DNA of 64,000 bases, from NCBI RefSeq assembly GCF_003334785.1, contig NZ_QOWV01000007.1, one strand, 5' to 3'. The notes under the pieces are model-generated. The model did not search any database, was not told the origin of the DNA, and saw only the letters and a list, made by a program, of their open reading frames with translations. Positions 44,071 to 44,973 of the stretch are shown piece after piece. The stretch's first letter is position 1. Every line of letters starts with the position of its first letter. The position numbers and the translations under genes are program-made. The stretch comes from Escherichia coli (GTDB lineage: Bacteria > Pseudomonadota > Gammaproteobacteria > Enterobacterales > Enterobacteriaceae).

Positions 44071-44253
44071 TTAAATAAGGTTAATTACCTTATCAATCTC
44101 AGCAAGAGGTAAATTTGCCATCTCTGCAACGTCTTCCCGAGACATTCCTTTACTCAGAAGACGCTGGGCGAATTCCTGACTTACTTCCTGTCTTCCCTGC
44201 TGAATCCCCTTCTCAATCCCTTTCTCTTCAAACCACTGCGCCAGCGTCATCAT
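44071..44253 (-). CDS. Putative intragenic in-frame small protein (C-terminal 60 aa of YadD; RpnS-like)
   Basis: Internal in-frame ATG-ATG (44253-44248) preceded on the minus strand by GGGAGGGGAG with Shine-Dalgarno-like spacing; encodes MMTLAQWFEEKGIEKG...KVINLI. Confidence 0.4.
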   Translation of the reverse strand: MMTLAQWFEEKGIEKGIQQGRQEVSQEFAQRLLSKGMSREDVAEMANLPLAEIDKVINLI

Positions 44254-44973
44254 AGACTCCCCTCCCGTTTCCCTGTCTCTCAACACACCGTAAAACAAAT
44301 CCGCTTGTTCAGTATGACCGCGTTGCAGCATATAGTTTTGCATGGCAACTAACTGACTTCCGCTAGTGTACCCTTCGTCGATCAGCGTGACCAGTTGCTC
44401 AAGCAATAACATTAAGTCGCGCTGGCGAATATGTTTTTGCAGTAGTTCGAGAATCGCAATCCGCCGATGTTGCATGATTTCGTCATCCGGTGTGATGGTG
44501 ATATCCACCAGCGGGAAAGGACTGTTATAGACGCGTCGCGCCAGCTCCGGCGAGTAAAACATATCAAACCAGCACATTGATAGCGGATAAGGTGTGGCCT
44601 CGCCCTGATAAAACAGTATCGGCACCACCAGCGGCAGCTTATCGTGGTCAGCCTCCAGATGCCGGTGCATGGCGGCTATAGAATAACGCATCATGCGAAA
44701 GGCCATTTTCTTATCCGGCTTGCTTTGGTGTTCAATCACAACATGCAGATAACCGGGATTGCCCTGCATTTGCACGGAATAGAGCACGTCCGTGCTGTGT
44801 CCTTTCAGGCTCTCTTCAATGAAACTCCCCGACTCTAAATGAAGCGTGTTGAGGTCACAAAGTTCGCGTAATTCCACTGGCAAATGTATCTCCAGAAAGT
44901 CGCGAGCCGTCTCCGCATGCATTAAAAATTGTTTAAATACCGCGTCATGCGGTGTGGTACTCGGTGCATCCAT
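44071..44973 (-). CDS. rpnC: Rpn-family (YhgA-like, PD-(D/E)XK) recombination-promoting nuclease
   Basis: 300-aa ORF MDAPSTTPHDAVFKQFLMHAETARDFLEIHLP... matches YadD/RpnC; it sits between panC and panD on the opposite strand. Confidence 0.9.
   Translation of the reverse strand: MDAPSTTPHDAVFKQFLMHAETARDFLEIHLPVELRELCDLNTLHLESGSFIEESLKGHSTDVLYSVQMQGNPGYLHVVIEHQSKPDKKMAFRMMRYSIAAMHRHLEADHDKLPLVVPILFYQGEATPYPLSMCWFDMFYSPELARRVYNSPFPLVDITITPDDEIMQHRRIAILELLQKHIRQRDLMLLLEQLVTLIDEGYTSGSQLVAMQNYMLQRGHTEQADLFYGVLRDRETGGESMMTLAQWFEEKGIEKGIQQGRQEVSQEFAQRLLSKGMSREDVAEMANLPLAEIDKVINLI

Follow-up and report, generated by a model that had tools for sequence, protein, structure and literature searches.

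The 64,000-nucleotide stretch of Escherichia coli DNA analysed here (hereafter the window) carries the genes panB (42340..43134), panC (43146..43997) and panD (45247..45627) on its plus strand and, between the last two, the rpnC gene (yadD; 44071..44973), which lies on the minus strand and encodes the 300-amino-acid protein RpnC-L. The rpnC DNA is 100% identical to that annotated in K-12 derivatives, where RefSeq names the product "recombination-promoting nuclease RpnC", and the gene corresponds to b0132 (146968..147870) of strain MG1655. At least 80% of a 1.8-kb query was present in 5422 of the 5426 complete E. coli genomes, and rpnC is a single-copy gene at the pan locus in nearly all E. coli (median of one place per genome). 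RefSeq annotates the 300-aa product alone at this locus, and the small product described below is absent from the annotation. The convergent panC and rpnC genes are separated by a 73-bp spacer that harbours a terminator-like hairpin with a 12-bp stem (44002..44032). The rpnC-panC pair is also listed as a convergent 'excludon'.

The original prediction had presented this open reading frame as a minus-strand, 300-aa gene of the Rpn (YhgA-like) family, and profile searches agree with it. RpnC matches the PF04754 model (Transposase_31, YhgA-like) over residues 7-207 (44353..44955, minus strand; model positions 1-201 of 203; E=3e-87), and it scores 298 bits against TIGR01784 (Rpn family; cut-off 52), in keeping with its RefSeq name. 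With this full-length match above threshold, RpnC belongs to the Rpn/YhgA-like nucleases. Its score against the NCBIfam RpnA equivalog, 311 bits, is under the 583-bit cut-off of that model. RpnC-L thus comprises a PD-(D/E)XK nuclease domain (the toxin) followed by a C-terminal helical domain. Its residues of the catalytic type are D10, D62, E81 and Q83, together with the stretch P162-D-D-E-I166 (PDDE at 162-165). Of 78 Enterobacterales homologues, 76-77 share D10, D62, E81, Q83, D163 and D164 and 70 share E165, and the RpnA equivalents of the first four (D11, D63, E82 and Q84) are required for activity (Kingston 2017, PMC5350276). The older label of the gene as a 'putative transposase' or insertion sequence was not adopted: rpnC is single-copy at the locus in nearly all E. 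coli, and rpn genes are reported to have neither terminal repeats nor target duplications (Zhong 2023, PMC10400941).

We compared the panC-panD junctions of related bacteria. A DNA pattern for the N-terminus of PanD retrieved 120 metagenomic loci, 95 of which contained both panC and panD. The junction is empty in 39 metagenomic relatives (PanC 70-89% identical), where panC and panD are adjacent on the same strand, with a gap of 69-280 bp and no rpn gene, whereas it is filled by rpnC in 55/55 Escherichia-type loci (gap of 1240-1607 bp) and by an rpn gene in one Pseudocitrobacter-type locus (gap of 1218 bp). From these compact empty sites and their filled counterparts we conclude that rpnC is an insertion, as previously described by Kingston 2017 (PMC5350276), who found the gene in 18 of 32 enterobacterial panCD segments. 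The proposal of an acquired gene inside the pan cluster is therefore sound. The accompanying statement that the gene interrupts the pan operon is correct as to the insertion between panC and panD, but not as to a single operon, because panD possesses promoter-like sites of its own; rpnC is better described as separating two transcription units than as splitting one proven operon.

The insertion is not recent. The GC content of rpnC (0.47-0.51) is similar to that of its surroundings, which led us to reject a compositional signature of recent transfer, and diverged orthologues stand at the same site in Salmonella and Pseudocitrobacter, as they do in Escherichia species. These Salmonella and Pseudocitrobacter orthologues are 57-64% identical to RpnC, as compared with 85-90% for PanC and 96-98% for PanD. 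Consequently, the Salmonella panBCD region, which had been proposed as the comparison to confirm the insertion, offers no empty site. A neighbour-joining tree was built from 78 N-terminal domains, a sample biased towards RpnC-like sequences. It places all the pan-locus genes (Escherichia, Salmonella and Pseudocitrobacter) in one clade (200/200 bootstraps), within which Escherichia is split from Salmonella plus Pseudocitrobacter (186/200). Kingston 2017 (PMC5350276) favoured two separate introductions; the tree is no worse a fit to one ancient acquisition with rapid divergence thereafter, and does not settle the matter.

Inside rpnC, positions 44266..44248 carry GGGAGGGGAG-tct-ATG-ATG on the minus strand. 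This segment combines a Shine-Dalgarno (SD) sequence, GGGAGGGGAG (44257..44266), the GGAGG core of which (44261..44265) lies 7 nt before the first ATG, with two tandem in-frame ATG codons (44248..44253, encoding M241 and M242), the first of which occupies 44253..44251. The open reading frame that begins there (44071..44253, minus strand) shares its stop codon (44071) with the full-length gene and specifies a 60-aa product, MMTLAQWFEEKGIEKG...KVINLI, the complete sequence of which is MMTLAQWFEEKGIEKGIQQGRQEVSQEFAQRLLSKGMSREDVAEMANLPLAEIDKVINLI; we refer to it as RpnC-S. Both the coordinates and the sequence given in the original prediction for this near-ideal SD and 60-aa frame proved exact. 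Programmed frameshifting was rejected as the meaning of the SD-like motif, which is followed by no slippery sequence and by a product that is in frame.

SD-like hexamers do occur within genes, and the present motif encodes the ordinary residues Gly-Gly-Glu-Ser-Met-Met. It might thus be a by-product of these codons, acting at most as a pause site for elongating ribosomes and giving no separate protein. Four lines of evidence speak against this explanation. First, we scored the pairing of the 3' end of the 16S rRNA with the 17 nt upstream of each of the 416 in-frame internal ATG codons found in the 46 long open reading frames of the window. The rpnC site gave the strongest pairing (-10.8 kcal/mol, as compared with -7.8 for the next unrelated site), so the motif is a clear outlier and not a chance GGAGG. 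An equally strong pairing occurs at only one of 52 first-ATG starts of long open reading frames, and the start of full-length rpnC itself reaches only -3.5.

Second, three genera have retained the SD and ATG even though the amino acids and codons involved differ. Each of 68 Escherichia-type panC-panD loci (13 genome loci and the 55 metagenomic ones) has the GGAGG core and the first ATG, and an SD followed by an ATG occurs at the homologous place in 33/33 pan-locus genes taken from genomes of Escherichia, Salmonella and Pseudocitrobacter. The GGAGG-ATG arrangement, lack of conservation of which among yadD orthologues had been named as an argument against an internal start, is thus conserved. 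The SD region reads gggaggggag (residues ETGGES) in E. coli, caggaggaa (LPQEES) in Salmonella and aaggagaag (LPKEKK) in Pseudocitrobacter, as expected for selection acting on a ribosome-binding site and not on amino acids. A wider scan, using one genome per species, yielded 74 Rpn loci. With the homologous start defined by the pattern M-[TG]-x-A-[EQD], 71 such starts were found in 70 Enterobacterales loci; 92% of them are preceded, at a suitable spacing, by an SD core of 4 nt or longer, and 64 of the 71 sit within a long open reading frame. As for the two tandem codons, the second ATG is kept in 67 of the 68 Escherichia loci (ATGGTG in the exception, locus L154) and is missing in Pseudocitrobacter, which has the first ATG alone (ATGGGA). 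Judging from this pattern of conservation, the first ATG (44253..44251) is likely the initiator of RpnC-S, giving the 60-aa product.

Third, a strong transcription start site (TSS) lies 105 nt upstream of the internal ATG. TSS were mapped to the window through the MG1655 coordinates of rpnC. For this purpose we take the coordinates of U00096.2 and U00096.3/NC_000913.3 to agree below 257 kb, hence in the rpnC region, an assumption that is supported by the exact placement of the -10 hexamer (see below). The plus-strand primary 5' ends reported for MG1655 by Cappable-seq (PMC4782308) stand at positions 146793 (score 1.8), 147423 (2.6), 147545 (1.7) and 147583 (60.2). The last one corresponds to window position 44358 (minus strand), which is an A located exactly 7 nt downstream of a TACACT hexamer; 146793 corresponds to 45148, a weak TSS 175 nt upstream of the full-length start. 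The score of the internal TSS thus exceeds that of the TSS ahead of the full-length gene by a factor of about 33.

The corresponding promoter was located by eye. It consists of a -35 hexamer, TGGTCA (44393..44388, minus strand), a 17-bp spacer and the -10 hexamer TACACT (44370..44365), at -12..-7 relative to the mapped TSS. A scan for consensus sigma-70 promoters within rpnC found none; it missed this one because the hexamers match the consensus at just 8 of 12 positions. The TGGTCA-N17-TACACT arrangement occurs in 62/64 Escherichia loci and TACACT is invariant in 17/17 aligned sequences from the three genera. Both hexamers and their 17-bp spacing are conserved in the Escherichia, Salmonella-type and Pseudocitrobacter-type genes, the spacer sequence having diverged. 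The three lineages agree at 11 of the 12 hexamer positions, as compared with 51% of positions overall in this small sample, which is suggestive of a conserved promoter. An internal TSS has also been found in all rpn genes by dRNA-seq, as cited in Zhong 2023 (PMC10400941). We conclude that rpnC contains an internal promoter giving a short and more abundant transcript, the position of its start in the window being deduced from the mapping. The 105-nt leader of this transcript shows no excess of structure over shuffled controls (z=+1.5), and a structured leader hiding the SD was therefore rejected. Together, the approximately 33-fold stronger TSS and the far stronger ribosome-binding site predict that RpnC-S is made in excess over RpnC-L, in agreement with the published finding that S levels exceed L levels (PMC10400941).

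Another primary 5' end (Cappable-seq score 19.4) maps just past the rpnC stop codon, at window position 44061. Transcripts starting at 44358 and 44061 head antisense towards panC. The antitoxin promoter might then double as an antisense regulator of panC, which would hold the gene at its site. We regard this idea as improbable. If it were true, rpnC would be kept at exactly this place through a transcriptional interplay with pantothenate synthesis.

Fourth, the small protein has been observed. Ribosome profiling with Onc112 and retapamulin gave signals at the internal start of rpnC (Zhong 2023, PMC10400941, Fig. 2D), and SPA-tagged RpnC-S and RpnC-L were both detected by immunoblotting (PMC10400941, Fig. 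2G). In the same study, the induction of the SOS reporter dinD-lacZ by RpnC-L was blocked by RpnC-S only when both carried an equal number of KGIE repeats (PMC10400941, Fig. 4D). Hence, initiation-trapped profiling, immunoblotting of a C-terminal tag and neutralisation of L by S, which the original prediction had called for, were already published for rpnC, and they bear out its central claim, that of a separately translated C-terminal antitoxin inside the gene of a toxic nuclease. After these four lines of evidence, the idea that the motif is a mere by-product of its codons retains next to no probability.

The L protein has been studied as well. Overexpression of RpnC is toxic, induces the SOS response and stimulates RecA-independent recombination (Kingston 2017, PMC5350276). 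Its overproduction caused a 59% loss of colony-forming units in a recA-deficient host and a late induction of dinD-lacZ, so that, within the family, it ranks with the weaker toxins and inducers of SOS (PMC5350276). In vitro nuclease activity has been reported only for RpnA. For this paralogue, a stable L-S complex consistent with an L2S2 composition, the inhibition of cleavage in vitro and a crystal structure are available (PMC10400941). Start-codon or ribosome-binding-site mutants have been reported for rpnA, rpnB, rpnP2 and a C. difficile gene, and none for rpnC itself (PMC10400941).

How might RpnC-S act on RpnC-L? A profile built from 72 S domains matches the RpnA-S entry of the Protein Data Bank (7TH0, 49 aa) from end to end (E=1.4e-12). 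This entry surfaced with the profile alone, a PDB search with the single RpnC sequence having returned nothing meaningful. The top PDB matches of the S profile were designer PPR repeat proteins, which we rejected because their many weak, repeated stretches are an artefact of composition. The AlphaFold2 model of RpnC-S (mean pLDDT 84) comprises helices at residues 3-33, 38-44 and 49-58. In a Foldseek search 7TH0 had the highest TM-scores among the matches listed (0.64/0.79), with an E-value that, for a domain of this small size, falls short of significance. RpnC-S is thus predicted to be a three-helix, HTH-like RpnS domain.

A 12-nt tandem repeat (44195..44226, minus strand; period 12 and 2.7 copies according to TRF), encoding 4-aa KGIE/KGIQ units, is common to L and S. 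[quoted passage not shown] The copy number of this repeat is hypervariable and changes S in steps of 4 aa. In 64 Escherichia loci S occurs as 38 distinct sequences, 50 to 86 aa long, and in Pseudocitrobacter it measures 64, 68, 76 or 84 aa.

The remaining Foldseek neighbours of the RpnC-S model are mostly HTH DNA-binding domains (DeoR, resolvase, Trp repressor), none with a significant E-value. Together with the Pfam domain name HTH_Rpn_C found in precomputed annotation, and with the fact that many antitoxins also repress their own operon, they could indicate that RpnC-S acts mainly as a DNA-binding protein, i.e., as an autoregulator or a DNA-targeting subunit, and not by sequestering RpnC-L. 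We consider this very improbable. The complex between RpnA-S and RpnA-L is stable, and RpnA-S blocks cleavage in vitro; in the case of RpnC, L is inhibited only by an S with the same number of repeats, an indication of helix-helix pairing (PMC10400941). Moreover, the DNA-binding and sequestering roles are not mutually exclusive.

From all these data we consider it highly probable that rpnC constitutes, within a single gene, an Rpn-family toxin-antitoxin module with an internally made antidote, and we propose that it operates as follows. The weak upstream promoter (TSS at about 45148) and the weak ribosome-binding site would give RpnC-L, a 300-aa PD-(D/E)XK DNA endonuclease that would damage DNA when overproduced. 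The internal TGGTCA-N17-TACACT promoter (TSS 44358) would generate a short mRNA that is far more abundant and begins with an unstructured leader of 105 nt, the near-consensus SD of which (44266..44257) would put ribosomes on the ATG at 44253 to produce the 60-aa RpnC-S. The latter, which reproduces the helical C-terminal domain of RpnC-L exactly, would use its long first helix to pair with the corresponding helix of RpnC-L, thereby keeping the nuclease inactive. Expansion or contraction of the 12-nt repeat in this first helix would alter which S fits which L. The anatomy of the module, its conservation, the TSS match and the fold come from the present analysis; the existence of the S protein, the toxicity of L and the repeat-specific neutralisation were established for RpnC in the literature (PMC10400941, PMC5350276). 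By analogy with RpnA, RpnC-L and RpnC-S may form a direct L2S2 complex, and, with RpnP2 as the sole precedent, RpnC-L may be released during phage infection.

As regards the biological purpose of the module, the link between Rpn proteins and phage defence put forward in the original prediction is true of the plasmid-borne RpnP2, the only member, RpnC not included, for which protection against T-even phages has been published (Zhong 2023, PMC10400941). For RpnC itself a defence role is conceivable by analogy. A search of PADLOC-DB 2.0 with RpnC gave marginal matches only, in a database that has no Rpn model. Alternatively, rpnC could be a domesticated or decaying selfish element, resembling a homing endonuclease, in which phage defence would play no part and the sole task of S would be that of an addiction or immunity factor. 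The insertion of the gene into an otherwise compact panC-panD junction, the weak activity of RpnC (PMC5350276), the broken L accompanied by an intact S in some genomes, and a literature that reports no phage phenotype for RpnC (PMC10400941) are all compatible with this alternative, and eroded mobile elements were indeed proposed by Kingston 2017 (PMC5350276). However, the gene is intact and its catalytic residues are kept in Escherichia, Salmonella and Pseudocitrobacter; the hypervariability of the repeat suggests an arms race; Rpn genes are enriched in the vicinity of defence genes and RpnP2 confers protection against T-even phages; and terminal repeats and target duplications are absent (PMC10400941). 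On balance, we regard a selfish origin of this kind as possible though unlikely, and we favour the toxin-antitoxin module with its internally made antidote.

Both the intragenic antitoxin and the panC-panD insertion were already published for rpnC itself; the original observation is correct and is not a discovery. The promoter hexamers and the TSS coordinate, the conservation counts, the variation in repeat length, the counts of empty sites and the single-clade tree reported here are refinements, not discoveries. The locus is of value mainly as a positive control, i.e., an experimentally verified internal start that was recovered from sequence alone, without tools. Genes-within-genes that encode the antidote to their own host protein are a recently recognised way of building toxin-antitoxin and defence systems, and standard annotation misses them.

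Several known systems can be compared with rpnC. The RpnC described in Zhong 2023 (PMC10400941) and Kingston 2017 (PMC5350276) is the same gene, and its internal start, small protein, KGIE repeat and insertion are described there. RpnA-L/RpnA-S (E. coli yhgA; 7TH0) likewise combines an N-terminal PD-(D/E)XK domain, an internal promoter, an internal ribosome-binding site with its ATG and a three-helix small product. RpnA differs from RpnC in being a paralogue at another locus, in having a 49-aa S protein with a single Met start, and in that the biochemical data, namely the L2S2 complex, the inhibition in vitro and the ribosome-binding-site/ATG mutant, belong to RpnA and not to RpnC. RpnP2-LS, from a plasmid of E. 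coli ECOR13, has the same intragenic toxin-antitoxin layout as the chromosomal RpnC and is the member with demonstrated protection against T-even phages. The small domain also exists as a separate, antitoxin-like gene in the stand-alone RpnS proteins (RpnE-Ss, i.e., YpaA; RpnC-Ss; DUF4351/PF14261). A second, stand-alone rpnC-Ss gene was reported in some strains (PMC10400941), and we found RpnC-Ss to follow rpnC in strains KE50 and EC19 as well as in 19 of the 55 metagenomic Escherichia loci; in contrast, the K-12-type window has no second S copy, the distance between rpnC and panC being only 73 bp. Finally, as in rpnC, an internal in-frame start in the Cas10d/Cas11d genes of type I-D CRISPR systems yields a small product from the C-terminal part, which binds to its large counterpart. 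In that case the two products cooperate, whereas RpnC-S antagonises RpnC-L.

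In homologous loci retrieved from other genomes and metagenomes, namely L082 (Salmonella-type, CP034074.1), L155, L162 and L097, the nuclease ORF encoding RpnC-L is disrupted, while the internal Shine-Dalgarno sequence, the ATG and the ORF of the antitoxin RpnC-S are all intact. The disruption is a nonsense mutation immediately ahead of the catalytic Asp in L082, and a frameshift or a split ORF in L155, L162 and L097. These loci may have lost the toxin and retained the antitoxin, or their broken ORFs may reflect assembly errors in low-coverage contigs. As regards the C-terminal domain itself, precomputed annotation places the family PF27070 (HTH_Rpn_C) on that of the Salmonella and Pseudocitrobacter orthologues. 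Our profile search with the Pfam-A library did not report PF27070 for RpnC, presumably because the library searched was an older release.

The 73-bp spacer separating the convergent stops of panC and rpnC holds a hairpin with a 12-bp stem (TAACTGGCGC...GCGCCAGTTA, 44002..44032), which resembles a terminator when read along the plus strand and may act in both directions. Two primary 5' ends of MG1655 listed in a Cappable-seq table (PMC4782308) map to the minus strand of this region, antisense to panC: MG1655 147880 (score 19.4) corresponds to 44061, 10 nt beyond the rpnC stop, and MG1655 148405 (score 7.8) corresponds to 43536, within panC. The rpnC-panC pair appears as a convergent excludon in the ExcludonFinder listing (PMC12288877).

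A search of complete E. coli genomes with a 1.8-kb query covering rpnC counted 77 plasmid places. In one E. coli plasmid (L104, NZ_OZ392440.1, at 19.5-20.5 kb), panD is found together with a remnant of the rpnC 5' end and a yadE fragment, and this stretch adjoins IS3 and ISL3 elements. In a genome matching the window DNA (H1, NZ_AP038814.1, strain TB354), the panC-rpnC-panD stretch is interrupted by an IS1A element. A further contig (L069, CALXDF010000219.1) carries E. coli-type panB, panC and rpnC, with a PanC 99% identical, in a metagenome-assembled genome labelled 'uncultured Oscillospiraceae', probably through bin contamination.

In some Escherichia, a second, separate S-domain gene of 65-77 aa (MEIKTRRETRQTLAQWFEEKG...), annotated as 'hypothetical protein', lies between rpnC and panC, as in strains KE50 (L001:680-877) and EC19 (L103:1224-1427). 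This stand-alone gene, which shows repeat variation of its own, is present in 19 of the 55 metagenomic Escherichia-type panC-panD loci carrying rpnC; the window, of K-12 type, has no such gene in the rpnC-panC interval. Directly downstream of an rpn gene of Rahnella bruchi (L025:4143-4388), we found an S-like stand-alone ORF of 82 aa (MTIAEQLR...) with its own GAGG, which shows that the separate-antitoxin layout exists outside Escherichia.
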